This document shows positions 8,224 to 54,064 of a stretch of 64,000 nt of DNA, in pieces; positions within the stretch are counted from its first letter, which is position 1; every line of letters starts with the position of its first letter. The notes under the pieces were generated by a model. The model was not told where the DNA came from and made no database searches. It worked only from the letters and a program-made list of their open reading frames with translations. The position numbers were made by a program, and so were the translations under genes. The stretch lies in NCBI GenBank assembly GCA_026418455.1, contig JAOABH010000007.1, positions 17,554 through 81,553 of the forward strand. The letters run 5' to 3'. This stretch comes from Hydrogenothermaceae bacterium (lineage in GTDB: Bacteria > Aquificota > Aquificia > Aquificales > Hydrogenothermaceae).

Positions 8224-8282
8224 AGGTTAACAGGAGCTGAAAGATAAAATGGTTTTAAGACCTTATTCATATATATCAATAA

Positions 8283-8474: not shown

Positions 8475-8518
8475 AGTCTTTCGTTCCTGGACCTTCCAGC
8501 TTGTGGTAGCTGTGGAGG

Positions 8519-13383: not shown

Positions 13384-13405
13384 CGTTAACTTTTAGTAAA
13401 AAAAA

Positions 13406-32670: not shown

Positions 32671-33464
32671 TCAATCCACAGTATAACTTAGCTCAACAGG
32701 TTGTCCATTCCTGATTATAGCTATCTTAAAGCTTTTTTCATTCCTTATTATCTGAAGTATTCTAAAAGCATCTTCTCCTGAGTTTATAGGTTGATTGTTT
32801 ATAGAGACAAGTATATCTCCTACATTTAAACCCATTCTCTGAAATAAACTACCATCTGCAATCCAGTCAAACCTAAACCCTTTTGTCTGTCCTCCCTCTA
32901 CAACCGGAATAAGTCTTATTTGAGTAAACATCACCCCTGGGTCAGATGTAAGTCTTTCAAGCTCTGACTTTGGAATCACATCACTGTTTTTATTAGGTGG
33001 TAATATGTTTTCCAACGGTGGTAAATTCACTGTAGGAGTAGAACCAGCTTCACTTTTACTTTTTGGTATATAGCCAAGTTTTATTTCTTTTTTTTCACCG
33101 TTTATGATAATAACTATAGAATCTTTAAGTATCCTCAATATTTTGATATTATCAATATTGTCACCTTCTTTTACTATCTTCTTATTGTCGTTTATGTACA
33201 CGAGAGCTATGTTTTTAGATCCGATAGCTGTTGCTAATAGTCCTATGTCTGATGTTGCTTTGGGAGAGGTTTTAGATTCTTCCGTTTTAGAATAAATTTG
33301 CCATTTTTTTCGAGAATATTCAAATTAATATCTTCTGGTTTTATTTTTGGTACTTTTGCAAAATCTGGTTTTTTTAAAAAATTTAGTAATAAGAGTGATA
33401 ATACAAAAGATACTAAAAAGCTAAATTTTAAAGGAAAAATGTAGTATAAGTATTTAAATCTCAA
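32671..33464 (-). CDS. gspC: T2SS GspC-like protein (TM + HR-like + PDZ), interrupted by a frame break at an A7 tract
   Basis: ORF 33464-33243 (TTG start, AAAGGAG RBS) encodes the TM segment. ORF 33201-32671 encodes the HR-like segment LLATAIGSKNIALVYINDNKKIVKEGD and a PDZ (GFRFDWIADGSLFQRMGLNVGDILVSINNQPI). The two frames meet at 33304-33310. Confidence 0.75.
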
Positions 33465-33481
33465 ATTTTTCTCCTTTAATA

Positions 33482-33490
33482 TGTTATAAT
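33482..33490 (+). promoter_or_regulatory. extended -10 promoter positioned for a leaderless gspM-like mRNA
   Basis: TGTTATAAT; the last base of the -10 lies exactly 7 nt before the A of ATG 33497, and there is no SD sequence. Confidence 0.4.
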
Positions 33491-33496
33491 AATATT

Positions 33497-33933
33497 ATGA
33501 ATGACTTGTTAGAAAAATTCAACTTTATAAATGCATTTTTACAACAGCGAAAGTTCTATTGGTTTGCTATTTTTTTTTTATTAATTTTGTATTCATTCTG
33601 CTTTTAATAAATAAATTTAATGAATTTAAAAACAGATATTTGCTACCATATATGCAATTAAAAGAAATGTATATGCTTATATCTAATGCCAATATTAAAG
33701 CTGTTCCAAAAGATCCAAATTTAATTAAAAATTTTCTGATTGATAATGGTTATTTGGTTGAATCTATAGATCAAAATGAAGACAGAATATTACTTACATT
33801 TAAAGGGTTAAAAGCTGATAAGGTTGTTCGTTTGTCTTACATTCTTGAAAAAAATGGTTTTGATATAGTTTCTTTTAGTGCAAAAGATAATACCGGAAAT
33901 GGAAATTTCTTTGTGGAAGTACAGATAAGATGA
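33497..33933 (+). CDS. gspM: T2SS GspM-like protein, interrupted at a T10 tract
   Basis: The ATG 33497 frame gives MNDLLEKFNFINAFLQQRKFYWFAIFF. The TTG 33559 frame gives the TM segment plus a C-terminal alpha/beta domain. The frames meet in T10 at 33570-33579. Confidence 0.55.
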
Positions 33934-35013
33934 TAAAGAGAAATTTCACAGGTATTGATGGAGATATTGTAATATCTTTATCAAAAGACAGAAAAATTTT
34001 AGAGGGGGAAGTTGGTAATAAAATATATGTTATACCTTCTGACAAACTTATATACTTTCGTGAAAAAACGGAGTTAAGGAATCCTAAAGAGATTTTAGAT
34101 TATTATAAACTAAAGATAGAAGAAAAGTATAAGCAAGATGTTATGTTTGATATTTATCTAAATAAAGATATTGTAGAAGTTTTGGTTGTTAAAGAGTTTG
34201 AAAAAACCAAAAGATTACTTTGCTCTTGATGGAGAGGTTTTTTCTTTAAAGAGATTCTTTATTGAATTTACTGGGAAATCTGATGGTTATGTTATAGATA
34301 TAGATGAAGACAAGGTTACTTTTATAGATATAAAAGAAAGAAATATTGATCTATATCGGGTCATAAAAATAGATCCTGAAACATTAATTGAAGATAGTAG
34401 TATATTTTTGAGTCAGATACCGGCTATAGATAAGTTGAAAACAGTTATGTTCTGTGGTAAACACAGAAATTTTACGAAAATATTCAATTTCTTAAAATCT
34501 AACATTAATGTAGAAAACTATTTTATTCCTACTGTCTGTAAGCCGGAGGAAGTGGCAGCTTATGGGGCTGCATTAAAAGGTTTTTTAGAAGGTGACTATC
34601 TGTCTTTTAGTGATAATTTTTTATCTTCTGAAGAATCTAAGTTGCTACAGCAATTAATTGTTTTGACGGTAGGATTTTATCTTATTTTTTATATCTTCAC
34701 TGGATATATAATGGACAGTATGATGAAAAGTATCAAGAGAGATCAGATAGTTCTCTTTAAAAAAGCATTTCCAGATCAGCCCATCGTATCTGTATATGAT
34801 CAAGTTAAATCTACTATAAAACCATCGGCTTCTTTTAAACTTTCAAAACTGTTTTTGTCTGTAAATCTTCCCAAAAATGCAAAGATATACAAGATTGAGT
34901 ATATAAATGGAGTATTAACAGTTAAAGGTGAATCTGATGAACCACCAGAAGTTGCAAAATCTATAAAGAAAACACCTTTGGGAAAGTTTGAGTTTGAGGT
35001 AGAGGTAAAGTGA
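33930..35013 (+). CDS. gspL: T2SS GspL-like protein, interrupted at an A6 tract (ORFs 33930-34229 and 34186-35013)
   Basis: N-terminal cytoplasmic part, single TM (LIVLTVGFYLIFYIFTGYIM) and a short periplasmic domain. The two ORFs overlap by 44 nt around A6 at 34201-34206. ATGA overlap with gspM. Confidence 0.5.
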
Positions 35014-36422
35014 ATATCCTTAAGGACTATAGGTTTATAGTTGATTATGAAGATGAAAATAAAATCATTTTGATAGTACCCCAGAACTATAACTTTTTGT
35101 ATGTTGAGGAGATAAGATTTTTAACAGGAAAAGCTGTAATACTTAAAAAGCTACCTGATGATGAATTTACAAAACTACTTCAAGAGAGGATATCCCAAGA
35201 AGATATTATTGTTGAATCTGGAGCTGAGGAAGGTCAAACTACATCGATAGATATCTTAGCTTCGGAAGAAGATAGTCCTATTATAAATCTTGTAAACTCT
35301 ATACTTATAAAAGCAAATACATTGAACGCTTCAGATATACATTTTGAGCCTTATGAGGATAGTGCCGTAGTTAGATTTAGAATGGATGGAGTATTACACG
35401 AATACCTTAAAATACCTTTCCAGACTTACAACTCTGTTGTCTCAAGGATAAAAGTTATATCAAACTTAAATATAGCTGAGAAAAGAGTACCACAAGATGG
35501 TAGGATAGGTATAAAGATAGGAAGTAAGGATGTTGATGTTAGGGTGTCCATTATTCCGACAGTTTTTGGTGAGAGAGTTGTTTTAAGATTACTGGATAAA
35601 TCAGGGTTTAACCTTACCTTGCAAGACCTTGGGTTTTCTTCAGAAAGTCTAAATACTTTTAAAAAAGTTCTTAAAAAACCATACGGTATCGTTCTTGTTA
35701 CAGGACCAACTGGTGCAGGAAAGAGTACCACACTTTACGCTTCCCTTCAGTTTATAAAAGACCCCCGTAAAAATATAATCACTATAGAGGATCCCGTAGA
35801 ATATCAGATAAAAGGGATAAGTCAGATACAGGTAAATCCTAAGGTTGGACTTACTTTTGCTTCAGGATTAAGGTCCATACTGAGACAGGATCCAGATATA
35901 ATAATGGTAGGAGAGATAAGAGACAGTGAAACGGCAGATATAGCTATCCATGCTGCATTAACAGGACACCTCGTTTTATCTACTTTACACACAAACGATG
36001 CAGTTTCATCTCTACCGAGGCTGATAGATATGGGAATGGAGCCATTTTTGGTAGCAAACTCACTTGAAGGAGTACTTGCTCAGAGATTGGTAAGAAAAAT
36101 ATGTATCCACTGTAAAACAGCTTACAAACCTTCAGCCATTGAAATTGAAGAGTTAAAACTTGACCCATCTAAAGATTACACATTTTACAAGGGAGTAGGT
36201 TGTCAAAACTGTCTTGGTAGTGGCTATAAAGGCAGGGTAGGTATATTTGAAGTTTTTGATGTTGACCAAACTGTTAAAAGTATGATAGCCAAAAATATGG
36301 ATACTAACGAGATTTTAACCTATCTAAAATCAAAAGGATTTAAAACTATGTTCGAAGATGGAGTTGATAAAGTTCTAAAAGGTATAACAACACCTTCGGA
36401 AGTATTAGCTGTTATAAAGTAG
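35010..36422 (+). CDS. gspE: T2SS ATPase GspE
   Basis: Walker A GPTGAGKSTT, Walker B IIMVGEIRD, tetracysteine CIHC...CQNC. Confidence 0.9.
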   Translation: MNILKDYRFIVDYEDENKIILIVPQNYNFLYVEEIRFLTGKAVILKKLPDDEFTKLLQERISQEDIIVESGAEEGQTTSIDILASEEDSPIINLVNSILIKANTLNASDIHFEPYEDSAVVRFRMDGVLHEYLKIPFQTYNSVVSRIKVISNLNIAEKRVPQDGRIGIKIGSKDVDVRVSIIPTVFGERVVLRLLDKSGFNLTLQDLGFSSESLNTFKKVLKKPYGIVLVTGPTGAGKSTTLYASLQFIKDPRKNIITIEDPVEYQIKGISQIQVNPKVGLTFASGLRSILRQDPDIIMVGEIRDSETADIAIHAALTGHLVLSTLHTNDAVSSLPRLIDMGMEPFLVANSLEGVLAQRLVRKICIHCKTAYKPSAIEIEELKLDPSKDYTFYKGVGCQNCLGSGYKGRVGIFEVFDVDQTVKSMIAKNMDTNEILTYLKSKGFKTMFEDGVDKVLKGITTPSEVLAVIK

Positions 36423-36433
36423 TGGAGGATAAG

Positions 36434-38500
36434 ATGATTGTAAGGATAATTTTTATCTTAGTTTTGGTATTTGGTTTTCATATAAAGGCAGAGGAACAGC
36501 CAAAAAAACCAGATATCCAGCAGGTAAAAAAGGCAAAGAAAGTTTTACTTAACTTTAGAGATACGGATATATCGGATATTGTTGAGTTTATGTCAGAGAT
36601 AACCGGTAAAAACATAATACTGTCCCAAGATGTTAAAGGAAAGATAACATTAACATCTTCTAAACCTGTATCTATAGACGAAGCTTATAATCTCTTTACA
36701 GTTGTACTTGCAATGAATGGTTATGCAGTTGTTGAAGATAAGAATTTTGTGAGGGTAGAGTCAGCAGCTAACTTGTCTGTTTTGCCAACAGAGGATAAAA
36801 AGTCTTCAGGAGAGATGGAGTTTTACATATACACAGCTCAAAATGTAAATGTCAATGAACTTCTAAACACAGTAAAACCATTTTTAAGTAAAGCAGCAAA
36901 AACATCTGTAAATGTCCAGTCAAATTCTCTGATAATATACGATATTAAAGCAAATATTTCCAAAATCGAAAATATTTTAAAGATAGCAGACAGTAAAGAA
37001 AATGCAGGTAGTTTATACATATACAACCTTAAATTTGCAAATGCTGAAGAGATACATAAAACTATCACACCTATCATTCAGATAATGCAGAGGACAAAAC
37101 AGAACCTTATAGTATCTCCCAATAAAGATAGTAACAGTATAGTTATCTTTGCAGATGAAAGTAGTTACAGAGATATAGCTAACATAATATCCAAACTTGA
37201 TACAGAGAGAGTTGTGACAGAAGGGAGAAACTACTTTATAATACCTTTAAAGTACACAACAGTTGCAGAGATAAGTAAATCTTTCCAATCTCTATTCCAA
37301 GCTTCAGCACCTGTTATGCCCCAGTATCAGTTTGGACAGCCTACTACTCAACCATTTCAAACAACTCAGCCAACTCCTCAAACAACTCTTCAAACAACAA
37401 CTCAACCTACAGATAGATTTACAGCAACTCAACCTCTCCAATCTCCTACAACTACAACCTCAACAACAACAACACCTTTAACACAGACTTCTCAGCAGAT
37501 ACCAGCCATAACCACCAAAGAAGGGATAAAGATAGGTTTTGATATAGGAACAAACTCTATCATACTGTATGCCACAAAGCAAGAGTATGAAGGTTTAAAG
37601 AGATTTATAGAAAATCTTGATGTAAGAAGGAAGCAGGTTCTTATAACAGCAACGATAGTGGAAGCATCTACGAAGAGCCTTTTACAGATTGGTGTCCAGT
37701 GGCAGGCATTGGGGAATAAAGGGGGAGCTGCTTTCAGAGGTGGAACTTCCGATACCCTATATCAATCTTTTCTATCTGGAAACTTTCTACTGGGATTTAT
37801 AAACAATTCTGGGAAAACATTATCTGTAGGGGGAACATCTGTATTTTTCCCTGATTTAGCTTTACTTTTCTCACTTCTTGAGAGTGGAACTGGATTTAAC
37901 ATAATATCAAATCCAAGAGTACTTACTCTTGATAACCAAGATGCAGAGATAAAAGTAGGAAATGTTATACCTTTTGCAAGCGGTGTTAAATTTGATATAA
38001 ACGGACAGCCTATCATAACCTATGATTACAAGGAGGTAGGTTTAACATTAAAAACTGTGCCGAGAGTTTCCTCTGCAGAAACCTTAAGGTTAAGTTTAAA
38101 ACTTGTTTTACAGGAAGTTACAGATTATATAAGACCACAGGTTGGAAATCTATCCTATGCTGTACCTGTTACATCTAATAGGTCTCTGGATTCGGATATA
38201 GTTGTGGAAAATGGTCAAACGATAGTTATCGGTGGTCTTGTAAGTGATAAGAATATAAAAACGGAAGACAAAGTCCCAGGTTTAGGAGATATCCCAATAG
38301 TTGGTAATCTATTTAAATACAGATCAGATTCAAAAGAAAAAACCACATTGTTTGTCTTTCTCACTCCATACATAATATCCTCTCCAGAGGAACTGTCAAA
38401 GATAACTCAGGAACATCAGAGATTATCTGAAGAGATAAATAAGAAGATAATGGAAAAACAGAAGAAAATCCCTACAAAATCGGAAGATATAAGATGGTAA
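36434..38500 (+). CDS. gspD: T2SS secretin GspD
   Basis: ATG 36434 after a GGAGGA RBS gives the signal peptide MIVRIIFILVLVFGFHIKA. N domains. Secretin core ending VPGLGDIPIVGNLFKYRSDSKEKTTLFVFLTP. Confidence 0.9.
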   Translation: MIVRIIFILVLVFGFHIKAEEQPKKPDIQQVKKAKKVLLNFRDTDISDIVEFMSEITGKNIILSQDVKGKITLTSSKPVSIDEAYNLFTVVLAMNGYAVVEDKNFVRVESAANLSVLPTEDKKSSGEMEFYIYTAQNVNVNELLNTVKPFLSKAAKTSVNVQSNSLIIYDIKANISKIENILKIADSKENAGSLYIYNLKFANAEEIHKTITPIIQIMQRTKQNLIVSPNKDSNSIVIFADESSYRDIANIISKLDTERVVTEGRNYFIIPLKYTTVAEISKSFQSLFQASAPVMPQYQFGQPTTQPFQTTQPTPQTTLQTTTQPTDRFTATQPLQSPTTTTSTTTTPLTQTSQQIPAITTKEGIKIGFDIGTNSIILYATKQEYEGLKRFIENLDVRRKQVLITATIVEASTKSLLQIGVQWQALGNKGGAAFRGGTSDTLYQSFLSGNFLLGFINNSGKTLSVGGTSVFFPDLALLFSLLESGTGFNIISNPRVLTLDNQDAEIKVGNVIPFASGVKFDINGQPIITYDYKEVGLTLKTVPRVSSAETLRLSLKLVLQEVTDYIRPQVGNLSYAVPVTSNRSLDSDIVVENGQTIVIGGLVSDKNIKTEDKVPGLGDIPIVGNLFKYRSDSKEKTTLFVFLTPYIISSPEELSKITQEHQRLSEEINKKIMEKQKKIPTKSEDIRW

Positions 38501-39126
38501 AGTACCTGTCAATTATAATCTTTTCTATCTTGGTAGGTTTTATAGTATTTGTTTTAACTGTTCCTAAATTTCTCATCTTAGATAAATTAGCAATGAAAAA
38601 CGGAATTTTCCTAATAGCTGACTCAGTGAAAGAGACACCTCTTAGTATAAACCTAAAAAATAGTAGTATATATATAGGAGATGATATGGTCCTTAAAGGA
38701 GCCGATATACAAGCTTCTGTGATACTAACTGGTCTATCTGTAAAAATAAAATGTGATGAAAAACTATCATATCTAAATATCTCTTTTAGTAAGAATATAA
38801 AAGCTAAATTTAATAATCTCACATGTGTAACAGCTGCTTCACAGGTAGAAGGTGATTTGTATACAAAAGATGGTGTTTTTGGAAAGATGGCACTAAAAGA
38901 TATAAAAGCACAGGGTAGAACTGTAAGAAATGTTGATATAGATTTTAAAGGAAATATTTTTAACTTTAAAGCAGATGTAGAAGGTATTAATGTGGCAGGA
39001 TCTGGAAATATCTCATACAACAGAGATAACCCTATGGACTCAAAGATAAATGCGGTTGCATCTTCTTTAGGATTTAACTTTATAATATCTGGTAGTTTGA
39101 TAAATCCAAAGATAACCCTAAAATGA
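38494..39126 (+). CDS. single-TM periplasmic protein, GspN-like by position
   Basis: N-terminal TM plus a beta-rich periplasmic domain, located between gspD and gspK. Confidence 0.35.
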   Translation: MVKYLSIIIFSILVGFIVFVLTVPKFLILDKLAMKNGIFLIADSVKETPLSINLKNSSIYIGDDMVLKGADIQASVILTGLSVKIKCDEKLSYLNISFSKNIKAKFNNLTCVTAASQVEGDLYTKDGVFGKMALKDIKAQGRTVRNVDIDFKGNIFNFKADVEGINVAGSGNISYNRDNPMDSKINAVASSLGFNFIISGSLINPKITLK

Positions 39127-39977
39127 TAATAATCCTTGTCCTTATGATGTTTATCACTTTCAGTTACTATGTGATAGATGCTTACAGTAATGTAAACTCA
39201 GCAAACAGAATGGTGGTATCTATATATAACAAACAACAGGCTTACTATGTTGCCTCTTCAGTATTTGAAGCTGTTAAATTTTTACTGAATACAGACGATA
39301 AAACCGTAGATACTCTTACAGATAACTGGGCAAATCCTATAACCTTTGAGAGAGAAGGTGTAAAAGTAGAGGTAACTATTTACGATGAAAACAGATATAT
39401 AAACCTAAATGGAGTAAAAGATCCATCGTACAGACAGATTGTAGAAAATCTATTTAACAGACTTAACATATCTCCGGCTTACATTGATAAAATCTTAGTG
39501 TGGATAGGCAAAAAAGAGGGTTCTGTTAATGATAACTATCCACCAAAAAAGGCAGATTTAGACTCTCTTTATGAGCTTTCACTTTTGGGATTTAGAGATG
39601 AGGATTTAGTAGGTAAGATGGTGGGAAATAACTTCTACCCAGGACTTTTCTCAACCTCAACAGTTTATACACAGGGAAGAATAAACATAAATACAGCTCC
39701 ACTTTATGTTTTGATGAGTTTAGACCCAAAGATAGACCAAACTCTTGCAACGAAGATTATAGAATATCGGCAGAAAAAACCTTTTAAAACTATCAACGAT
39801 ATAGTTTTAGTAGATGGCTTTAACTTTGATATCCTATACAGGATACAGAACTTTATAGATGTAAAGTCCGATATATTCCATATCAAAATATCTGTCAAAA
39901 TAGGTGATACCCCTATGGAGATTGATTATATTTATAACAGAAATTCTGCAGAGGTTTTATACAAGGAGATAATATGA
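39123..39977 (+). CDS. gspK: T2SS minor pseudopilin GspK
   Basis: LTDNWANP motif and RININTAPLYVLMSL...IIEYRQKKPFKTINDI (HhH/SAM-like insert). Confidence 0.8.
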   Translation: MIIILVLMMFITFSYYVIDAYSNVNSANRMVVSIYNKQQAYYVASSVFEAVKFLLNTDDKTVDTLTDNWANPITFEREGVKVEVTIYDENRYINLNGVKDPSYRQIVENLFNRLNISPAYIDKILVWIGKKEGSVNDNYPPKKADLDSLYELSLLGFRDEDLVGKMVGNNFYPGLFSTSTVYTQGRININTAPLYVLMSLDPKIDQTLATKIIEYRQKKPFKTINDIVLVDGFNFDILYRIQNFIDVKSDIFHIKISVKIGDTPMEIDYIYNRNSAEVLYKEII

Positions 39978-40267
39978 GTGATGTTAGATTATCTGAAAGT
40001 GAGATAGAAACCATAAAGAGAGTTGTTAGGCAGTTTGACCCTCAGGCAAAGATAATCCTATTTGGAAGCAGGACAGATCTGTCAAAAAAAGGAGGAGATA
40101 TAGATCTTTTAGTTATTTCTGATAAAATAGATTATAACAGCCGTAGAAACATAAAGACAGAACTTTACCTACTTTTGGGAGATAGAAAGATAGACCTGAT
40201 AGTTACAGATAACCCGGATAAACAGTCATTTACAAAGATAGCTTATAAATACGGAGTAGAGTTGTGA
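39974..40267 (+). CDS. MNT-type nucleotidyltransferase (MntA-like antitoxin)
   Basis: LFGSRTDLSKKGGDIDLLV (GS-x10-DxD). ATGA overlap with gspK. Confidence 0.8.
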   Translation: MSDVRLSESEIETIKRVVRQFDPQAKIILFGSRTDLSKKGGDIDLLVISDKIDYNSRRNIKTELYLLLGDRKIDLIVTDNPDKQSFTKIAYKYGVEL

Positions 40268-40725
40268 AGTTTGAGGAAGCAAAGACTTTACTGTGTGAAT
40301 CTCTAAAACATATTGAAAAAAATCTATACTGGTTGTCAAAATCTTATGAAAAAGTTAAAGATATAGATTTAACATATTTAGATGAGGATAATTTTGAAAT
40401 CATTGAAGTGATGTTAAGTAGATTTTCAAGAACAGTTGATTTACTTATAAATCGGATACTCAGAACGTTGGATATAGTAGAATTGGAAGATGTAACTAAG
40501 AAGCTTGATACGGTTATAAGAGCAGAGAAAAGAGGTTTTGTAGATGATTACAGAGAATTGATAGAGTTGAAGGATTTAAGAAATGAGCTTTCCCATGAGT
40601 ATATAGCCGATGAGTTAGTAGAAAAAGTCAAAGAAGTTATAGAGAAGACACCAAATCTTATAGGGATTGTTAAAAAGGTTATAGAATATGTTGATAAAAT
40701 GAATTACTGTAAGGAGGAATTGTAG
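40264..40725 (+). CDS. HEPN-domain protein (HepT/DUF86-like toxin)
   Basis: R-x4-H motif LRNELSHEY. GTGA overlap with the MNT gene. Confidence 0.7.
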   Translation: MKFEEAKTLLCESLKHIEKNLYWLSKSYEKVKDIDLTYLDEDNFEIIEVMLSRFSRTVDLLINRILRTLDIVELEDVTKKLDTVIRAEKRGFVDDYRELIELKDLRNELSHEYIADELVEKVKEVIEKTPNLIGIVKKVIEYVDKMNYCKEEL

Positions 40726-40727
40726 AT

Positions 40728-41132
40728 ATGAAGAAGGAAAGAGGATTTACACTGATTGAGCTTCTTGTGGTTATTATCATCTTAGGACTTTTGGCTGCGT
40801 TGATAGTCCCTCGTATAACAGGAAGAGTAGATGAAGCAAAGATAGAGACAACAAAAGTACAGCTTAAAGCACTTAAAGATGCTTTAGAACAGTATAAGCT
40901 GGATAACGGTAACTATCCAACTACACAGCAGGGATTAAAAGCACTTGTAGAGAAACCTACCACCCCACCTATTCCAAACAGATGGAGACAGTATCTTGAT
41001 AAACTACCGAAAGATGGTTGGGATGAGGATTTTATATACATCTCTCCAGCTCCAAATAGACCATATGATATAAGATCAAAAGGTCCAGATAAAACCGAAG
41101 GAACAGAAGATGACATATCAGTTTGGCAATAA
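40728..41132 (+). CDS. gspG: T2SS major pseudopilin GspG
   Basis: MKKERGFTLIELLVVIIILGLLAALIVPR...QLKALKDALEQYKLDNGNYPTTQQGLKAL. Confidence 0.95.
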   Translation: MKKERGFTLIELLVVIIILGLLAALIVPRITGRVDEAKIETTKVQLKALKDALEQYKLDNGNYPTTQQGLKALVEKPTTPPIPNRWRQYLDKLPKDGWDEDFIYISPAPNRPYDIRSKGPDKTEGTEDDISVWQ

Positions 41133-41928
41133 AGAAACCCAGAGATTAGATATAACCCTTGGAGATGTCATAAAAGCCATACCACCTAAGTTTGTCAAAA
41201 TACTAACTGGAAAAAACGCTAAAATACTCTTAGATACAGTCTTCAAACAGACAAAAGAAAGAAAATTAGACTTTTTATTAGAACTTGAAGACAGTTCAAT
41301 ATTCCACCTTGAAATACAATCAACCAACGACAAAAACATGCCATACAGAATGCTTGAATACTACCTTTTAATAACATCAAAATACAACAACAGAAACATA
41401 ATACAGAAAGTCCTATATGTAGGAGATGAACCACTAAATATGGAAGGCAGTATAGAACTTCCAAATTTACACTTTAAATATGAACTATTAGACATAAAAG
41501 ATATATCATGTAAAGAACTGATAGAGAGTCCAGATTTAAACGACAAGATACTTGCAGCACTTTGCAAAATAGAAAATCCAGAAAACTATCTTTTAATAAT
41601 CTTTGATATACTATCTAACATACCTGAAAGAGAAAGGAAGGATTATATAGTTAAGTTATTGACTGTCTTAGATTTTAGACCTAAATTGAAAGAGGTAGCC
41701 TTAACATTGAAGGAGGAAAACAAAATGCCTTTAACAATTACAAGAGAGATGATAGAGAAAGACCCTTTCTATAAAAAAGGGCTGGAAGAAGCTTATAAGA
41801 AAAATATAATCAAATTATATACAAAGAAATCTTTTACTCCTGAAGAGATAGCGGAAATTTTGGATGTTTCATTAGACTTTGTAAAAGAAACACTTAGAGA
41901 AAAAGACAATCTTAAAAAAGATAAGTAA
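41110..41928 (+). CDS. Rpn/YhgA-family PD-(D/E)XK nuclease (putative transposase), copy 1
   Basis: LDFLLELEDSSIFHLEIQSTNDKNMPYRMLEY core. Its 5' end overlaps the gspG stop. Confidence 0.75.
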   Translation: MTYQFGNKETQRLDITLGDVIKAIPPKFVKILTGKNAKILLDTVFKQTKERKLDFLLELEDSSIFHLEIQSTNDKNMPYRMLEYYLLITSKYNNRNIIQKVLYVGDEPLNMEGSIELPNLHFKYELLDIKDISCKELIESPDLNDKILAALCKIENPENYLLIIFDILSNIPERERKDYIVKLLTVLDFRPKLKEVALTLKEENKMPLTITREMIEKDPFYKKGLEEAYKKNIIKLYTKKSFTPEEIAEILDVSLDFVKETLREKDNLKKDK

Positions 41929-41942
41929 GATAACAAAAAAAT

Positions 41943-42221
41943 ATGTTTTTAAAAAAAGGCTTTACATTACTTGAAATTTTGATAGCTATTACGATTATAG
42001 GTGTTACATTTACAGTTGCTTACGGGCTTCTGTATAAATCACGAGCAGACCTTGATTACACTTTAAAGCTATTTGATAACTTTTTATACATAGACAGCAG
42101 TATAAAGGAAGGTAAAACTTCAGATCTAAACAAAACAGAGAAGGATATCCCTGGATATCCGATAAAAGAGATAACCTATGAGAAAAACGGCGTATATATC
42201 AAACTTTACCAGATTAAATAA
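41943..42221 (+). CDS. minor pseudopilin (prepilin-type N-terminal methylation domain)
   Basis: MFLKKGFTLLEILIAITIIGV. Confidence 0.8.
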   Translation: MFLKKGFTLLEILIAITIIGVTFTVAYGLLYKSRADLDYTLKLFDNFLYIDSSIKEGKTSDLNKTEKDIPGYPIKEITYEKNGVYIKLYQIK

Positions 42222-42720
42222 AGGTTTTACACTTATAGAAGTTTTAGTAGTCTTAACTCTTCTTGGGATTGTGTTTTCTGTTTTGTCCTTTGGATTTTAC
42301 AACTCCATATACTCATCTCTCTCCATATCCCAAAGGTCAAAAGAAGTAGAAGATGTAGCTAAATTTTACTGGGATTTTCAGAGAAAGTTTTCCACTTCAA
42401 AACAGATTTTTATAAAAAAAATATCACAGAACAACTACATAATCACCCTCTATAACACATCAGGAGAATTTTCAAAAGGTTTGGTTAAATCAGTTTATTT
42501 TACAAAGGAAAATTTTCTTTGGTATTACGAATATCCATATATATTCGGCGACCCATATTTTTACGATGAAACTAAATCTATAAAAGTCATACCTGTGCAG
42601 GATTTTAATGTGGAGATAAATTACAACGGACAGAAAGTGGAAGAAATTAATTTGACAAAAATGGATAAAAGTTTTATTATTATAATGGAGGTTAATAAAG
42701 TTTATAAGTTAAAATTCTAA
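42178..42720 (+). CDS. minor pseudopilin (prepilin-type N-terminal methylation domain)
   Basis: NKGFTLIEVLVVLTLLGIV. Confidence 0.8.
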   Translation: MRKTAYISNFTRLNKGFTLIEVLVVLTLLGIVFSVLSFGFYNSIYSSLSISQRSKEVEDVAKFYWDFQRKFSTSKQIFIKKISQNNYIITLYNTSGEFSKGLVKSVYFTKENFLWYYEYPYIFGDPYFYDETKSIKVIPVQDFNVEINYNGQKVEEINLTKMDKSFIIIMEVNKVYKLKF

Positions 42721-42735
42721 TATAGGAGGAAAGTC

Positions 42736-45294
42736 ATGAAACGACTGATTTTTGCAGCGGCTTTATAGACAGGTTTCTTGATTTATAGTTGCGGAGGGGG
42801 TGGAGGAGGCGGAGGTAGTAGCGTAGTCCCAACACCTCAGCAAGTTTCTATTACTGGTTTAGCAACTTCTTTACCGTTAACGTCACAGCAAATGTCAAAT
42901 GCAATATCACAGCAAACAGAATCTCCAATTCCAATTTCAAATGCAGCAGTTACGATTACAGATTACTGTGATGGCAAATCTTTTAACTTGGCAACTGATA
43001 ATAATGGTAAGTTTAGTGTTCCTAATCTGACTATTTGTGATAAAGGAAGTCAGCCTGTAATTGAGGTAAAAGTTGAAAAAGAGGGTTATGCACTTTTTTC
43101 CAAAAGTTTTACCTATAATGACCTTAAAAATTCTAAAGATGTAACACTACCAGCATATCTTGACCCTATAAAGAATGCTACCACTATTAATTCCGATCAA
43201 ATAAATTTATCTTCACAAGGGAATGATGATTATGTATCTATAGCTGTTGTGAGGGATAAATCTACGCTGAAAACTCAGATATTGTCTGGACAGGAGCTTA
43301 CAACACAACTGAGAAAAAGTAGTAATCTTGAAGTTGTTTGGCAACTCGATGTAAAGAGATCTCTGCTAAAAGCCCAAGCAACAAACGGAACACCAACATA
43401 CATAGCTAAAATTAATAATTATGATCCGACTAATCCAGATGATATGAAAAAATTTCCTACAGATCAAAGTGACAAGGGAAAACTTGTTACTGCTGGGTTT
43501 GATTTTGTAGATATAAGAGATACATCTGGTAAACCTCTTACTTTACAAAAAGCTAATACACAATCATTATCAGGACAGGCTTTACCTCCAAATTGGAAAA
43601 TAAAAAGGACAGTGAATTGTTCTTTAATAAAATGTGATGAAGATAAAACTAAAGATGGTTATCAGATTGGATTTTATGCTTATTTAAATGGACAGTGGAA
43701 GTTTGTAGGTTACGGAACTGTGTATGATGGTCAAGATAACATCGTTAGTGATCCTACAAATGCAAGTAGTTGTCAGATAGTTTTAACTGATAGTGATATT
43801 GGTCAGAATTTAGATATGAATAATTATTATAACTTTGATCATGTTTTAGCTGGATGTGGTCAGCTACAGACAGGTACAATAAGGGTAAACCTAAAAGATG
43901 ATGCTGGAAATCCTGTGAGCTCTTGGGTAGGGATAGTTGTTGATGGTAACTATCAATGGGGAGATACAAATAGTGATATAACATATTCTTATTTATCTAG
44001 CAGTTCCAAACCTAATATTCAAGTTTTAGACCCATATACATACAAGTGGATAAATCCATCAACATCAACATCAACATCAATACAATGTTCAAAAGATAGT
44101 ACTAATACTAATATCGATACTTACAATTGCACTGTTACTAATCCTTACAAATGTAGCGTTACCGGAACATTAAAAGATTCAAAAAACAACCCCTTACCAA
44201 ATAAATTGGTTTACTCTAACATTGCTAAAACATCTACTTATACTGATAGTAGTGGTAAATTTAAATTACAAACCTTGTGTAATGTAGAAGGATATATCTA
44301 TGTAGGGCATAGGTGGACCTCTATGGCTACATTTAATGTTAATAGAACTACGAATAATGACGAGACATCTGATGATGGAACAAATGTAGTATTAAAGGAT
44401 ATTTCTATTCAGAATAATCCGCCAGAGATATCTTATATATATGCTGGAGGTTCTTATTCTAATGTACTTACAGTTAAGTCAGGAAGTAACTTAAATCTTT
44501 ATAGTTTTGCATATGACCCAGATGGAGATAAAGTGACATATAGTTGGTCAGATAATAATTGTGGTGGTAAGTTCAGTGATGCTACATCACCAAATCCAAC
44601 CTGGACAGCTCCTACTACTCCCCCAAGTACTGGAAAATGTACTATAACTCTTACAGTCTCTGATGGTTCAGCTACAACTACTAAAGATATTACAATTACC
44701 GTTACAAACAATAATATTCCACCTGTAATATCCTATATGACTGCAAGTCAAACTCAAGTTAAGAAAGGTGGTTCTGTCAATCTTTATAGTTTTGCATATG
44801 ACCCAGATGGAGCTAATGTGACATATAGTTGGTCAGATAATTGTGGTGGTAAGTTCACTGATGCTACATTACAAAACGATGGTACTACATTGCAAAATCC
44901 AACCTGGACAGCTCCTACTACTGCTAAAACATGTACTATAACTCTTACAGTCTCTGATGGTTCAGCTACAACTACTAAAGATATTACAATTAATGTCGGA
45001 TATCCTCCTGTTATTAGCTCTGTAAATATTCCAACTACTGCAAACATAGGAGATAAATTAACATTCTCTGTTGTTGCTTCTGATGCAGATGGAGATAGCT
45101 TAACATATGAATGGAGAGTTAATAACTCAGTTGTCTGCACTACATCTACCTGCTCTTATACAGTCAATGCAGGAGGATCTTATTTTGTAGAAGTTACTGT
45201 TAAAGATTCTGACGGTAATACTGCAAAAGCTTCAGGAACAGTTATGGTTGGCAAAAATGCAGACACAACCATTAATATTCAAAAGAAAAATTAA
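42736..45294 (+). CDS. large secreted lipoprotein with PKD-like repeats; signal peptide interrupted by an in-frame TAG (42766-42768)
   Basis: AGGAGGA RBS, then ATG 42736: MKRLIFAAAL*TGFLIYSCGGGGGGGGSS. Three C-terminal PKD-like modules (YSFAYDPDG..YSWSD..TWTAP..CTITLTVSDG). Confidence 0.75.
44494..44995 (+). repeat. tandem near-identical 285-nt-period DNA repeat (two PKD-like modules)
   Basis: AATCTTTATAGTTTTGCATATGACCCAGATGGAG occurs at 44494 and 44779. Long identical runs follow, through ...CTATAACTCTTACAGTCTCTGATGGTTCAGCTACAACTACTAAAGATATTACAATTA. Confidence 0.85.
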
Positions 45295-45314
45295 TTTTTA
45301 AAGGAGGAATAGTC

Positions 45315-46625
45315 ATGAAAAAACTTGCAGCAAAAACATTGTTGACAGTAGGTTCTGTGGCGGCTGTGTCCGCCTCTCTTTTCTCTTGCGGAGGAGGTGC
45401 ATCTTCTACAACTTCGGCAGATACTTCTGTTGGAAAAACTGCTATTCTTGAAGTAAGTATTCCGGAGCTTGCAAATAAAGTTACCGGACAGATTCTGGCA
45501 GATGATGCTCAGAAATACAGAGTTGTTATTGAACAATATTCATCTGACAGTAACGGTGTGATATGTGATTACAAAAACTATTCATCTCCAACTTGTGCAT
45601 ATAATGAAGACTCAGTTACTCTGACACCTTCCAGCCCAACAGCAAAGATAGGCTTGTATCCTGGACTAACAAAGATATGTATCTATCAGAACGAGAATTA
45701 TTCTCCACTTTTATGTAGTCTTGCAGAACTACAAACAGGGACAAATAACTTTACATTTACACTTACAAGAGGAACATGGTCACTACCAACTGGTAAAGAT
45801 ATAAACGGTTATACAAAGTTTGCCATAAAAGGTTATAATGATAACTATTATGTGTATGGAGATCAAAATCCATTGTTAAGTATCATTGGTTCTAAGGATG
45901 GTTCTACTTGGAATTCACAAGATATAGTAAACGGAGCATATACTCAGAGAGATTACCAAAATGGAGGTAAGTTTTTCGGCTTAGGTAGCGGTGGTGATGG
46001 TTTTGTAGCAATAGATGGAACATACGATTCTACAAATAACAAAATTGTACTTAGGGACATTTCTACAAAGGGTATATACAAAGATATTACGTACGCTAGG
46101 ATAGTTAAAATGGAATCTATTGAAGAAGCTCAGATTTTTGATAATACAGGTAGTAATGTAACTGGTACAGTTTTTGGTAACTGTAAATTTTCTTCTACTG
46201 ACGGAAAATCTATAACAGGTTGTTTACTTAAAAATGCTATGGATGGAACAGATCAAGATTACACTTACAAGATAGCACTCACTCACAAATTAACCGGTCC
46301 ATCTATCTGTTATGATATGAGAGACTTATATGATCCAAACAGCGGAGTATGTTTTGACTCAGCTAATTATACTTATAATAATGGAAGCTATACTTATACA
46401 TGTTTTAAGGACGGTTATCAATATAACTCTTCTACCGGAAGATGTGAGGCTGATCTGAAAACAGTATGTGAAACTACAAGAGGTGGAACTTATGATGCAA
46501 CATCAAAAACATGTACTGAGAGTAATACTCTATATGTAAAAGTAGGTTCTATGGAAAAAGTTACTCTAACAGGTTCTTCTTCTCTACCTTCTACAGGAAC
46601 GATTACTGTTCAAAAAACGAAGTAA
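45315..46625 (+). CDS. secreted lipoprotein (436 aa), function unknown
   Basis: Signal peptide plus lipobox ASLFSCGGG; Cys-rich C-terminal half. Confidence 0.7.
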   Translation: MKKLAAKTLLTVGSVAAVSASLFSCGGGASSTTSADTSVGKTAILEVSIPELANKVTGQILADDAQKYRVVIEQYSSDSNGVICDYKNYSSPTCAYNEDSVTLTPSSPTAKIGLYPGLTKICIYQNENYSPLLCSLAELQTGTNNFTFTLTRGTWSLPTGKDINGYTKFAIKGYNDNYYVYGDQNPLLSIIGSKDGSTWNSQDIVNGAYTQRDYQNGGKFFGLGSGGDGFVAIDGTYDSTNNKIVLRDISTKGIYKDITYARIVKMESIEEAQIFDNTGSNVTGTVFGNCKFSSTDGKSITGCLLKNAMDGTDQDYTYKIALTHKLTGPSICYDMRDLYDPNSGVCFDSANYTYNNGSYTYTCFKDGYQYNSSTGRCEADLKTVCETTRGGTYDATSKTCTESNTLYVKVGSMEKVTLTGSSSLPSTGTITVQKTK

Positions 46626-46635
46626 TTTTTTACTG

Positions 46636-46660
46636 GAGGGAGTTTTTACTCCCTCTTTTT
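46636..46660 (+). terminator. Rho-independent terminator
   Basis: GAGGGAGT-tttt-ACTCCCTC 8-bp stem followed by TTTTT. Confidence 0.7.
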
Positions 46661-46684
46661 ATATTCAAAAATGTCGGAGATATT

Positions 46685-47149
46685 ATGAAAAGTCTATTTA
46701 TCTTGTTGGGATCGCTATTTATATTAGTAGGATGTAACAATTCAGAAGATAAAAAAGTTGCGGAAAATGTAAGAGAAGGCGTTCCTGCACCTACAAATCC
46801 TTATGATATCCAAAATTTTGAAATGTCCAAAAAATATAGCAGTTATTCCATCTATATAAAAGCTTTACAGCAGGAGATGACAAAACCAGAGCAGTCTATA
46901 TTTCCTGTCGGTATGGATTATATTTTAAGATTAAACCAAGTCAGTATTAAGGTGGTTGGAGATAAGCTTAACATAGAGGTTAGTGGAGGATATGCATTAA
47001 CTAACATTGATTATTCAGGTTTTAAAATATACAATGTACAACTATTGAAAATAAATGGTAAAAATTACAATCCAGAGAGTTTGAAAGGTAAAAAATTTGT
47101 GATATACTTGAAGGATGAAAAATTAATATATTCCCTTGAGGAGAGATAG
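46685..47149 (+). CDS. small lipoprotein (154 aa)
   Basis: Lipobox FILVGCNN. Confidence 0.65.
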   Translation: MKSLFILLGSLFILVGCNNSEDKKVAENVREGVPAPTNPYDIQNFEMSKKYSSYSIYIKALQQEMTKPEQSIFPVGMDYILRLNQVSIKVVGDKLNIEVSGGYALTNIDYSGFKIYNVQLLKINGKNYNPESLKGKKFVIYLKDEKLIYSLEER

Positions 47150-47151
47150 TT

Positions 47152-48836
47152 TTGTTGAATTTAGTTAAATTAATGTTACTATTTCTTTTTGCCTTTAATT
47201 TAACATATTCTCAAGAATTTAACGGTTTAATAGTTAAATATAAAAGTGGCTCAATCTCAAAACAGTCAGGAGATTTTAGCAGTTTAAAATTAGTTAAATT
47301 ATCAAAAAATGAAGATATAAAAGCAAAAATAAATTACTATAAAAATTTGCCAAATGTAGAGTATGTTGAACCTAACTACATAATAAAAAAGCAGATACAA
47401 CACCTAATGACCCTTACTATACTCAACAATGGGGCTTAAAAAGAATAGGAGTTGGAAAGGTTTGGGATTCTTATAGAGAATCTTCTGTTGTGGTTGCCGT
47501 AATAGATAGTGGAGTGAAACTTGATCATCCTGATCTTAAAGATAACATATGGAAAAATCCCGGTGAAACAGACTGTAATAACGGTATAGATGATGATAAT
47601 AACGGTTATATTGATGACTGTTATGGCTGGAATTTTGTGGATAATAACAACAACCCTATGGATGATGATGGACACGGAACACATATTGCAGGCATAATAG
47701 GAGCTGTAACTAACAATAGCACTGGAGTAGCGGGAGTAAATTGGAAGATAAAAATTATGCCTGTTAAAATTCTTGATAGTAACGGTAATGGTGATCTGCT
47801 TACCCTTGTAAAAGCATTAAAGTATGCTGCTGATAACGGAGCAAAGGTGGTAAATCTAAGTTTAGGATATCCTTCCAGTTGTACATATGTAGATTCTTCC
47901 CAAGCTCTGAAAGATGCAATTGATTATGTAAAAAGTAAAAATGTTATAATTGTAGCAGCAGCAGGAAATTATAGTTGTGATGATGATGTATATCCATTTT
48001 ACCCTGCAACCTTAAATGTTGACAACATTATATCTGTTGGATCTTCATCTTCTGATGATAAATTGTCCTATTTTAGTAATTACGGAAAAAATTCTGTTGA
48101 TATCCTTGCACCCGGTGAGAATATAGTAAGCACTTATATAGATCAAACCGGATATAAATCTCTCTCTGGAACATCAATGGCTACCCCTTTCGTTACAGGT
48201 GCTGTTGCATTAATACTATCAAACAAAACAGATATTCCTAATCCTTTTGCTGTTAGAGATTTAATAGTAAATTCCGCCGATAAGAATAGTTACATAGAAG
48301 ATAAAGTTATAGGTGGAATATTAAATCTTTTCTCTGCCTTTAATAGTCAGTTATCTCCTATAAAACCTTTGAATATTTCTTACTCAGCAGTTAGTTCATC
48401 AACCGGTAGTAGTCCGCAGGCTGTTACAATTAGCTGGGAAAAAAGATCTAACATTGTTGAGAAATTTGTTGTTGAAAGAATGCAGGTTGGAAGTGTTGGA
48501 GGAATGCAGGCTGGGAGTTGGAACGTTGTAGCTGAATTATCAGCTAATGAAACAAGTTATACCGACAACACCGTATCCGGTGGAGTGACATATCAGTATA
48601 GAATAGGGTCTGTATATCAAAGTAGTATATCCTACTCTGATCCAATAACAGTATCTGTACCTGCACCTACTCCTACTTCTTCACCTTCAAGCTCTTCATC
48701 AGGTGGAGGTGGTGGTTGCCATTTAATCTCAGTGAATATATACTCATACTTAATGGTAATACTCTTAATACTCATAAGGAAATTTAATGGAATTTTACTA
48801 CGAAGGATATATTCAAGGGAAGAAGGTAAAGGGTAG
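47152..48836 (+). CDS. subtilisin-like (S8) serine protease with propeptide, Fn3-like domain and C-terminal sorting signal; frame break at A6 (47385-47390)
   Basis: ORF 47152-47439 is the signal peptide plus an I9-like propeptide ending VEYVEPNYIIKK. The next frame, open from 47376, continues ADTTPNDPYYTQQWGLKRI...VAVIDSGV (Asp), DDDGHGTHIAG (His), SGTSMATPFVTG (Ser). Confidence 0.85.
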
Positions 48837-49971
48837 TATAGAGGCACAGGATAAGAAGAAAGCTACTTTACTACTTAGAGAAAAAGGTATAAATCCAACA
48901 TTAATCCGTATAAAAGATGATAAAAAATCTTTTAAACTTCTTTCTATTAACAGAGTTTCGGAAGAGGATTTGGCTTTTGCTTTCATGCAAATATATATTT
49001 TACTTAAAAGTGGAATAACATTTACCAAAGCATTAGATCTGGTATCATCACAGGTGGATAATGAGGAGCTTGCTTCTGCTTTTGTTAGAATAAAGTCTTC
49101 TGTTGAGTCTGGAGTTTCAATATCAGATGCTTTCCGTCAAGAAAAAATATTTCCAGAGATCGTGGCTAATATGTTAAACTCTGCTCAAACTGGAGAAAAT
49201 TTAGAACTTATATTTAAGATAGTTTCAGAATATTTATCAAATGTATCACAGATAAAAAGTAGAATAACATCTGCTTTAATATATCCGATAGTAGTAATAA
49301 TTTTTGGAATAATCTCTGTATTCATTGCAACAAATTTCGTAGTCCCTAAGATAGCTTCAGTTTTAACAAGTTTTGGTAAGGACTTACCAGTTATAACAAA
49401 GGCTGTCCTTATACTCTCAAAGATATTTACATTTACTATATTTTTATCTCCTGTATTTATAGCTATATTTTTAGTTAGAGACAAGCTAATTAAAAACACT
49501 GTATATGATAGGTATCTGTTAAACTTACCTGTTATAGGTAAAATTATCCTCTACTTTAATATATCTCGATTTGCAAATATATTATCAATAACATTAAAAT
49601 CCTCCACTCCTCTACCAACTGCTGTAAATATGGCAGTAAACAGTGTGTCAAACAGCTATATCAGATCTAAAATAGATGATGTAAAAAATGAGCTGTTAAA
49701 AGGCAAGTCTTTAACTTATGTACTATCTAAATCTGGTGTTTTCCCACCGTTATTTATAAATCTACTTAAAACCGGAGAAGAAAGCTCAAAACTTGAAGAG
49801 ATGTTGGACACAATATACTCTCTCTATACAAAACAGATAGAAAAAATAATAGATAGATGGATAAAACTTATAGAGCCTATAACTATGGTTATTATAGGTG
49901 GTGTTATAGCTATAATAGTTTTAAGTGTTATACTCCCTATGACAGAGTTATCTACCGGAATTAAACGGTAA
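48787..49971 (+). CDS. gspF: T2SS inner-membrane platform protein GspF
   Basis: MEFYYEGYIQGKKVKGSIEA N-terminus, duplicated GspF domain, three TM segments. Confidence 0.9.
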   Translation: MEFYYEGYIQGKKVKGSIEAQDKKKATLLLREKGINPTLIRIKDDKKSFKLLSINRVSEEDLAFAFMQIYILLKSGITFTKALDLVSSQVDNEELASAFVRIKSSVESGVSISDAFRQEKIFPEIVANMLNSAQTGENLELIFKIVSEYLSNVSQIKSRITSALIYPIVVIIFGIISVFIATNFVVPKIASVLTSFGKDLPVITKAVLILSKIFTFTIFLSPVFIAIFLVRDKLIKNTVYDRYLLNLPVIGKIILYFNISRFANILSITLKSSTPLPTAVNMAVNSVSNSYIRSKIDDVKNELLKGKSLTYVLSKSGVFPPLFINLLKTGEESSKLEEMLDTIYSLYTKQIEKIIDRWIKLIEPITMVIIGGVIAIIVLSVILPMTELSTGIKR

Positions 49972-50320: not shown

Positions 50321-50690
50321 TTATAAATTCTTCCTTAAATTAAGATTTAACAGATAAGGTAAGTATAACTTTTTTATCCTATCAAATATCTCATGGCTTG
50401 TTAATTCATCGTATATATGAGAGCTTCTATTTCTATCTTCAAGCATATCTAGAATTATCTCATCATCCTCTATAACTCTCGCTTTAAAAGCTTGTTTTAC
50501 ACAGTCTCTTGGAGAGTTACACTCTATATATTTATTCCTTAAAATCGCTTTTAAAGTCTTCCACAATAGCTCTACTGTAAATTCAAATCTCTGGATAACC
50601 CCATCTTTGTCAAGGTCATCTTTTGCTGTTTCCACAGCTTCTTTTAATCTTTGCAGTGATTTTTCAAAGTTCTCTATCTTAATAAGAGCT

Positions 50691-50704
<14 letters not shown>
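50321..50704 (-). CDS. HEPN-type nucleotidyltransferase substrate-binding protein (HI0074 family)
   Basis: R-x4-H motif DRNRSSHIY; overlaps the upstream MNT gene. Confidence 0.75.
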
Positions 50705-53620
<2,916 letters not shown>

Positions 53621-53688: not shown

Positions 53689-54064
53689 ATGAAAAAAGAA
53701 ACCCAGAGATTAGATATAACCCTTGGAGATGTCATAAAAGCCATACCTCCAAAATAGGAAAGATTACATAACTAAGCTATTGATAACATTAGATTTTAGA
53801 CCTAAATTAAAAAGGTTAGTATTAAAGTTTAAGGAGGAAAATAAGATGCCACTTACAATAACAAGAGAGATGATAGAGAAAGACCCATTTTTTGAAGAAG
53901 GAAAGAAAGAAGGGCTTAAAGAAGGGCTTAAAGAAGGAAAAAAAGAAGATATTGTTAAATTATATACGAAACTCTCATTATCCATAGAAAAGATAGCACA
54001 AGTACTGGATGTTCCAGTAGATTTTGTAAAAGATACATTAAAAGAAAACGGTTATCCGGTTTAA
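53689..54064 (+). pseudogene. internally deleted Rpn/YhgA-family gene remnant (copy 2)
   Basis: 53695-53747 is 53/53 identical to 41131-41183. The sequence then jumps to the equivalent of about 41636 onward (about 80% identity). The N-terminal frame stops at TAG 53755-53757. The C-terminal 94-aa ORF (53780-54064) is retained. Confidence 0.8.

Follow-up and report, generated by a model that had tools for sequence, protein, structure and literature searches.

We analyzed a 64-kb stretch of DNA (the window) from a metagenome-assembled genome (MAG), not an isolate genome, deposited at NCBI as "Hydrogenothermaceae bacterium" with locus tags N2Z81_ and situated on a contig of 120,071 bp. Positions 32671 to 49971 hold a type II secretion system (T2SS) locus, and five of its genes are disrupted in the assembled sequence. 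The gspC gene lies on the minus strand. A divergent spacer of 32 bp separates it from the plus-strand genes, which follow in this order.

32671-33464, minus strand: gspC, with a TTG start, an AAGGAG Shine-Dalgarno sequence, a transmembrane segment, an HR-like region and a PDZ domain; broken at an A7 run
33497-33933, plus strand: gspM-like gene, broken at a T10 run (33570-33579)
33930-35013, plus strand: gspL-like gene, broken at an A6 run (34201-34206)
35010-36422, plus strand: gspE, ATPase, intact; TIGR02533 at 619 bits, just under the cut-off of 630
36422-38500, plus strand: gspD, secretin, intact; TIGR02517 at 472 bits against a cut-off of 351
38494-39126, plus strand: gene for 210 amino acids (aa) in the gspN position, named by position only
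39123-39977, plus strand: gspK, minor pseudopilin, intact; PF03934 (T2SSK)
39974-40725, plus strand: MNT nucleotidyltransferase and HEPN-like pair, between gspK and gspG; Polbeta/NTP_transf_2, with NTase_sub_bind below cut-off
40728-41132, plus strand: gspG, major pseudopilin, intact; PF08334 at 6.6e-33 and N_methyl (PF07963)
41137-41952 (open reading frame [ORF] 41110-41928), plus strand: Rpn/PD-(D/E)XK-like gene
41943-42720, plus strand: two minor pseudopilins with N_methyl motifs, gspI-like (41943-42221) and gspJ-like (42178-42720)
42736-45294, plus strand: PKD-domain lipoprotein, putative cargo, with an AGGAGG Shine-Dalgarno sequence and an ATG at 42736; TAG at 42766-42768
45315-46625 and 46685-47149, plus strand: two intact lipoproteins with lipoboxes LFSC and LVGC and no family match
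47152-48836, plus strand: S8 subtilase, Peptidase_S8 at 3e-63 with a Fervidolysin_NPro-like region; broken at an A6 run (47385-47390)
48787-49971, plus strand: gspF, platform protein, intact; PF00482 at 1e-47; its first 50 nucleotides (nt) are shared with the S8 tail

Five disrupted genes in one locus

An earlier sequence-only reading of this DNA had called four frame breaks and one in-frame TAG. Three-frame translation confirmed all five. On the minus strand, gspC passes from frame 0 to frame 2 at its A7 run (T7 on the plus strand, 33304 to 33310), and 1 nt must be added to restore it. In gspM, the frame that opens with MNDLLEKFNF and runs on to WFAIFF enters the T10 run, and the remainder lies in the -1 frame, so that 1 nt is again needed. 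The gspL gene requires the opposite correction, the loss of 1 nt, because it is split at its A6 run between VVKEFEK and PKDYFALDG. The S8 protease is split at the boundary of prodomain and catalytic domain, between PNYIIKK and ADTTPNDPYY, and needs 1 additional nt. In the PKD lipoprotein, the TAG is the 11th codon. It falls inside the signal peptide and upstream of the lipobox Cys (MKRLIFAAAL, stop, TGFLIYSCGGGG).

After the 1-nt repairs, gspC, gspM, gspL and the S8 gene have 264, 145, 360 and 561 codons and no further stops, and the repaired proteins align end to end with intact orthologues. GspC would be cut off from its transmembrane anchor and GspL would be split within its actin-like domain, which would abolish secretion. 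The S8 protease and the PKD lipoprotein would likewise be cut off from their signal peptides. A plain start of gspM at TTG 33559 would be another explanation. We rejected it, since the N terminus in the upstream frame (MNDLLEKFNF) resembles those of the orthologues (MNKIGINFNL and MGKLINKYF). A truncated GspM that begins with the transmembrane segment may still be made from TTG 33559.

We then asked how the lesions are distributed. A stop-to-stop ORF map and a list of gaps revealed no broken housekeeping gene in the remaining ~47 kb, as the sequence-only reading had maintained. Each of its control tracts (two A7 runs in ffh, A7 in pheT, A8 at 56171 and T7 in dnaB) was located and leaves the reading frame intact. 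Coding A/T runs of at least 6 nt number 46 in the T2SS locus and 107 elsewhere in the window, and all four frameshifts are in the locus (hypergeometric p ~0.007). Adding the nonsense codon, by coding length, gives p ~0.002. Both tests are post hoc, although gene function sets the limits of the region that they concern. Within the locus the lesions track tract density, with gspC, gspM and gspL holding 14 of the 46 tracts. The T10 run is the only coding A/T run of at least 9 nt in the window. Coding A6 and A7 runs total 148. None of the four 8-nt runs is disrupted, nor are 25 other 7-nt runs, but two 6-nt runs are. The lesion set comprises three structural genes and two cargo genes. None of the lesions is in the embedded MNT/HEPN or Rpn-like genes.

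The large gaps outside the locus are explained by three features. At 8282-8472, on the plus strand, there is a probable 6S RNA (RF00013), a full-length match of 44.1 bits for a gathering score of 46.4 (E = 1e-7). It is directly upstream of a 5-formyltetrahydrofolate cyclo-ligase gene, and ssrS and ygfA of Escherichia coli have the same arrangement. A CRISPR-like mini array at 13158-13390 has four repeats of ~30 nt (CTTTCTACCCCACACGGTTCAGACAAAAC) at a spacing of 65 to 66 nt, and we recognized no cas genes among the adjoining ORFs. The third feature, at 53738-54064, is a truncated Rpn-like remnant that is homologous to the C terminus of the Rpn-like ORF at 41110-41928. It sits between alaS and an acyl-CoA synthetase-like gene, where relative L001 (see below) has only a 127-bp spacer. 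The remnant is the sole degraded gene found outside the T2SS locus, and its truncation is not homopolymer linked.

Orthologues, flanks and a divergent cassette

Four relatives were available as DNA: L090 (Logan SRR24425660), L091, L001 and a Sulfurihydrogenibium sp. represented by a JGI contig (L093) and an ENA contig (L094). Their nucleotide identity to the window is ~90% for L090, ~75% for L091 and ~72% for L001. No sister strain is in the databases, and exact-protein look-ups of GspE and the GspL fragment returned no contigs. A single metagenome scan with GspE as the query was dominated by distant GspE genes (best identity, 62%) and yielded no close relatives; GspD or GspL would be a better query. 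One cluster member (P0017) that seemed to be a close GspF fragment was rejected as an unrelated ORF of a Nuo operon.

The sequence-only reading had proposed that the tracts be compared in sister strains. Wherever gspC, gspM and gspL are on the contig, they are single intact ORFs in L090, L091, L001 and L093. The intact gspC orthologues of L090 and L091 encode 257 and 266 aa, and those of gspM encode 137 to 146 aa. All 10 GspL homologues in the protein database are intact (349 to 389 aa). The S8 gene is intact in L001 and, for the part on the contig, in L093. The dozen closest non-self S8 homologues (46 to 50% identity) are single ORFs of 536 to 576 aa that include the prodomain. The PKD lipoprotein homologues P0020 and P0021 have unbroken signal peptides, ending in IASCGGGG and ISSCGGGG. 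The homopolymers at the four tract positions, like the frame breaks, are absent from L090, L091, L001 and L093. Because the orthologues are intact and the repaired genes are collinear with them, the lesions are specific to this lineage and are not conserved recoding sites. An apparent conserved frameshift in gspC of L093 was rejected; an upstream TTG puts the transmembrane segment there in frame, and the annotated start was just a later ATG picked by the gene caller.

The Sulfurihydrogenibium orthologue of the PKD lipoprotein has a lesion of its own. An in-frame TAA (LYLYGYG, stop, DPDGDPITYSW) is present at 11830-11835 of L093 and also in L094, where the window and L001 have Tyr. The gene has been called as two ORFs of 610 and 237 aa. 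Since this stop arose independently, the PKD cargo gene has been lost repeatedly.

The T2SS locus itself is best explained as a vertically inherited chromosomal locus, as gene order and sequence relationships suggest. The sequence-only reading had offered a recently acquired, now decaying genomic island as one cause of the lesions. Some features would fit an island, namely the embedded selfish genes (the MNT/HEPN pair and the Rpn-like nuclease), a cargo block that is placed differently among relatives and a recombination-like cassette with sharp edges. However, the flanks are shared. L090 and L091 have the same upstream neighbors, from ffh through ribH, nusB and a gene for 99 aa to gspC and the divergent gspM-gspL-gspE. 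Downstream, yajC is the same in L001, where alaS and the acyl-CoA synthetase-like gene come next. GspE, GspK and GspD follow the relationships of the genome and place the window next to L090 (96, 96 and 91% identity; 95.7% for GspE before rounding). The GC content is not atypical (0.27 to 0.35 in the locus, ~33% in the window). A tRNA scan found no tRNA in the locus, an Rfam scan of the locus was also empty, and family scans revealed no integrase among those of its proteins that were scanned. A recent acquisition is therefore not borne out, and of the explanations discussed here it is the one that we find hardest to credit.

One segment departs from this pattern.

33020-34868 (L090 9100-10930): divergent cassette covering the 5' part of gspC, gspM and most of gspL

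Its nucleotide identity to L090 falls to 35 to 70%, from a baseline of ~90%. The left flank (31.7 to 32.9 kb) is 96 to 100% identical, and on the right the identity returns abruptly to 100%. Among the five taxa, GspM (29 to 42% aa identity) and GspL (39 to 50%) are star-like and roughly equidistant. This pattern suggests that the GspC-N/GspM/GspL platform module was exchanged by recombinational allelic replacement.

Secretion, cargo and embedded genes

Most of the gsp names in the sequence-only reading were supported by profile matches. Repaired GspC (264 aa) scores 112.7 bits with TIGR01713 (cut-off, 101.6) and also matches PDZ_6, and GspD passes its NCBIfam cut-off as well. T2SSK, T2SSG, N_methyl and T2SSF matches account for the pseudopilins and GspF, and the GspE orthologue in L090 matches PF00437. 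The name gspN, by contrast, remains positional. The protein has no match in Pfam or NCBIfam, and the gene is kept at 209 to 210 aa in L090, L001 and L093. A prepilin peptidase (GspO) was not found among the ORFs of the locus or in the window, and it may be encoded elsewhere in the genome.

GspL and GspM had no match in the Pfam and NCBIfam hidden Markov model scans, and their assignment leans on structure models. The AlphaFold model of the GspL orthologue in L090 (P0003; 50% identical to the repaired window GspL) has a pLDDT of 83. For its actin-like domain, the structural matches are PilM and the cytoplasmic parts of EpsL, PulL and GspL, with E values from 1e-10 to 1e-5. A long transmembrane helix and a small periplasmic domain follow. 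The AF2 model of the GspM fragment from 33559 to 33933 has a transmembrane helix and a ferredoxin-like domain. Its top matches in the PDB are the C-terminal domains of PulM and EpsM, with a target-normalized TM score of ~0.72 and a weak E value of 6e-3. These models are consistent with the gspL and gspM labels.

The window resembles the Klebsiella Pul and Vibrio Eps systems in having GspD, GspE, GspF, pseudopilins G, I, J and K, a PDZ-bearing GspC, and putative GspL and GspM with predicted PilM-like and PulM-like folds. It differs from them in several ways. GspL, GspM and the protein in the GspN position have diverged beyond the reach of Pfam and NCBIfam. The genes are arranged as M-L-E-D-N-K-G-I-J-F, with a divergent gspC, the window lacks a prepilin peptidase, and three structural genes are frame broken. 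In addition, cargo genes are embedded in the operon along with a toxin-antitoxin-like pair and an Rpn-like gene.

The cargo block is in a different place in each lineage. In the window it is between gspJ and gspF, and in L001 (1-4748) it is upstream of gspM. In L093 (1-1497 and 10001-14773) the lipoproteins are between gspK and gspC, and the S8 gene is divergent and upstream. In L090 the block is absent from the site. Orthologues of the two lipoproteins at 45315-47149 adjoin T2SS genes in L001 and L093. Linkage to gsp genes is therefore kept in three different arrangements, which makes the lipoproteins and the S8 protease putative T2SS substrates.

The S8 protease ends in a tail (window 48700-48836) made of SSSSGGGGGC, a hydrophobic helix and basic residues. 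This tail is conserved in L001 (4640-4748) and is 11 aa longer in the window. Some T2SS-dependent serine proteases carry C-terminal sorting tails, as does Vibrio VesB, with its GlyGly-CTERM and rhombosortase. The S8 protease, which is encoded with the T2SS, is like VesB in having a tail that resembles such sorting signals. VesB is trypsin-like, however, and no sortase gene was seen in the window. Sorting-signal models were tried on the tail and not accepted, because the GlyGly-CTERM family tail (SVAGG) and JDVT-CTERM matched only below threshold (E ~0.1).

The MNT/HEPN pair and the Rpn-like gene had been missing from the sequence-only description. L090 retains the MNT gene with the HEPN part deleted (40284-40666), and L001 has neither. 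A second MNT/HEPN-like pair is at 50321-50987 on the minus strand, just downstream of yajC. The Rpn-like gene matches PDDEXK_2 and TIGR01784 only weakly, under their cut-offs. Compared with L090, it has been inserted precisely behind codon 7 of gspI. In the junction alignment, it takes over the start codon of gspI (MTYQFGN) and in turn provides gspI, through its 3' end, with a new ATG and the leader MFLKK/GFTLLE, which is a plausible prepilin leader. A full-length paralogue is at 57315-58259. In L001, two neighboring ORFs (215 and 125 aa; 7683-8753) between gspE and gspD look by eye like a split Rpn-like gene. They would mark a different Rpn-like insertion site in the same operon.

Explanations for the lesions

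We suggest that the lesions mark a recent, genuine loss of T2SS and cargo function, and on balance we consider this probable. Decay was among the alternatives in the sequence-only reading. It is the best-supported one, with the proviso that it can only have begun very recently. The genes for GspC, GspM, GspL, the PKD lipoprotein and the S8 protease would have been inactivated by replication slippage at A/T runs, which produced the indels, and by one nonsense substitution. As soon as a single essential part had failed, selection would have ceased to act on the rest of the module and its cargo. Further lesions would then have been confined to this module, and the genes that are richest in AT and in tracts and under the weakest constraint would have been hit first. 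On this account the lesions would be real alleles of the population. We favor recent loss because the affected genes form a coherent functional set, the data are probably of Illumina origin, the tract-length pattern is unlike length-driven error and an independent TAA is present in Sulfurihydrogenibium. Module-wide pseudogenization of dispensable systems by homopolymer indels is familiar from bacterial genome decay and is also discussed in PMC5009743 and PMC3711429. The window is similar to such systems in its lineage-specific A/T-run indels and nonsense codon, confined to one module whose orthologues are intact. It differs in its unusually early stage, with one lesion per gene, no rate acceleration, no deletions and a MAG consensus as the only record.

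Several observations weigh against recent loss. The lesions are read from the MAG consensus sequence alone. The databases have no sister strain, and the nearest non-self GspL is 50% identical. In an outgroup comparison of the intact gsp genes, window-specific and L090-specific aa changes number 50 and 57 (27 and 28 in housekeeping genes), a test with low power for decay younger than ~0.3 to 0.5% divergence. Divergence from the outgroups is no greater for the broken GspM and GspL than for the intact alleles, and the broken proteins are, if anything, closer to the outgroups than those of L090. Each gene has a single lesion, and equally clean ORFs would be expected from an assembly error or a reversible switch. 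With no acceleration and one lesion per gene, the decay, if real, is therefore extremely young. Three possibilities follow: inactivation took place very recently, the lesions are spurious, or the organism tolerates them.

The main rival is an assembly or consensus artifact of the MAG, in which the real genes would be intact and the errors would come from an AT-rich, strain-variable and possibly poorly covered region. The sequence is indeed a MAG contig, and three of the lesions are in the AT-richest 1.9 kb of the window (GC 0.26). This 1.9 kb is also the strain-hypervariable cassette, where coverage of any single allele may be low. The genes are perfectly open after 1-nt repair, with no excess substitutions, and the contig name of the companion MAG L001 gives a coverage of ~9x. 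The platform can be traced through L001. Its locus-tag prefix (N2Z80; MAG SKW169, JAOABC01) is adjacent to N2Z81, and its accession falls in the range that PMC11382323 gives for a set of 313 MAGs, which came from the water of the Sungai Klah hot spring and were sequenced on an Illumina HiSeq 2500. This points to the same dataset as the probable source of the window. Consensus indels at 6- to 7-nt runs are rare on that platform, and the intact 8-nt and 7-nt runs beside two disrupted 6-nt runs also argue against an artifact. Other AT-rich stretches are clean (18 to 20 kb and 54 to 56 kb; GC 0.29 to 0.30), the S8 lesion and the TAG are in sequence of normal GC content, and a nonsense substitution is not a homopolymer error. 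The sequence-only reading had disfavored random sequencing error because of the clustering. This is a reasonable judgment, which the probable Illumina origin and the intact 8-nt runs strengthen, but consensus error remains a serious rival that we regard as less likely than real loss and yet far from negligible.

Three further explanations treat the broken frames as functional. Under slipped-strand phase variation, the T2SS would be switched on and off by at least one of the tracts, chiefly the T10 run in gspM, and the assembly would have caught the OFF state. Secretion systems and secreted cargo are often under contingency control, and the lesions here strike both, in ORFs that are otherwise pristine. 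In Neisseria, for example, the poly-G tract of pilC gates pilus assembly; like the T10 run in gspM, it is a frame-shifting homopolymer near the 5' end of a gene for a machine of the type IV filament family. A/T runs of ~9 nt are hypermutable and normally avoided in coding regions, with counter-selection evident from about nine nt in many genomes (PMC1088944), and T10 alone in the window reaches this length. However, the T10 run differs from the pilC tract in being absent from relatives. None of the four tract positions has a homopolymer in any relative, so they are not conserved contingency loci. Most of the affected runs are of 6 to 7 nt, which are common in the window, and hypermutability is not expected of them. 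Four OFF lesions of mixed sign (+1, +1, -1 and +1) and a nonsense codon cannot revert together or act as one switch. Phase variation, which the sequence-only reading had listed, is thus unlikely. It had also listed slippage, in which transcriptional slippage or -1 ribosomal frameshifting would restore the frame at a reduced, tuned level of expression, possibly favored by a high growth temperature. Trans-frame peptides such as NYIIKKADTTPNDPYY and EFEKPKDYFALDG would then be expected. Three lesions that need a -1 shift do have in-phase slippery heptamers (A_AAA_AAG in the S8 gene, U_UUU_UUA in gspM and A_AAA_AAU in gspC), but deleting one base from a run creates such heptamers automatically, and they are therefore not independent evidence. 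U10/A10 is within the range of efficient RNA polymerase slippage, and Thermus dnaX uses an A9 run in this way (PMC1088944). The gspM T10 run shares with dnaX, and with slippage in insertion sequence elements (PMC1088944), a slippage-prone length and a presumably thermophilic organism. In contrast to those systems, no orthologue shares the break, the tracts apart from T10 lack the necessary length and nothing points to a dual-product logic. In addition, gspL needs the opposite correction, the downstream 60-nt folds are unremarkable (z of -0.3 to +0.9 relative to shuffles), no Shine-Dalgarno-like stimulator is visible upstream, and a TAG cannot be bypassed by slippage. We therefore give slippage very little credence. 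Finally, the 5' part of gspC, gspM and gspL could be an exchangeable, hypervariable platform cassette of the Hydrogenothermaceae, with the T2SS and cargo held reversibly or leakily OFF by the slippage-prone A/T tracts. A secreted protease that serves as a public good would then be expressed at a low level or heterogeneously, through switching at T10 or through slippage of the polymerase at high temperature. This would be population-level regulation instead of decay. We find this combined proposal quite improbable, slightly less so than slippage alone and more so than phase variation.

A recent inactivation of this kind is an ordinary event, and it leaves our knowledge of T2SSs and of recoding unchanged. 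It does call for caution in annotation, because NCBI has named the fragments as separate proteins; the gspL halves, for instance, are two hypothetical proteins (N2Z81_07295 and N2Z81_07300). Two by-products are of wider use. The Hydrogenothermaceae keep a conserved T2SS scaffold, with a cargo block placed differently in each lineage examined, and the platform genes for GspC-N, GspM and GspL behave as a divergent cassette with sharp edges when genomes of otherwise ~90% identity are compared. If recent loss is the true explanation, the locus would be an example of module-wide relaxed selection. If the lesions are real, it would be a snapshot of the first steps by which a natural hot-spring population loses a secretion system together with its dedicated substrates.

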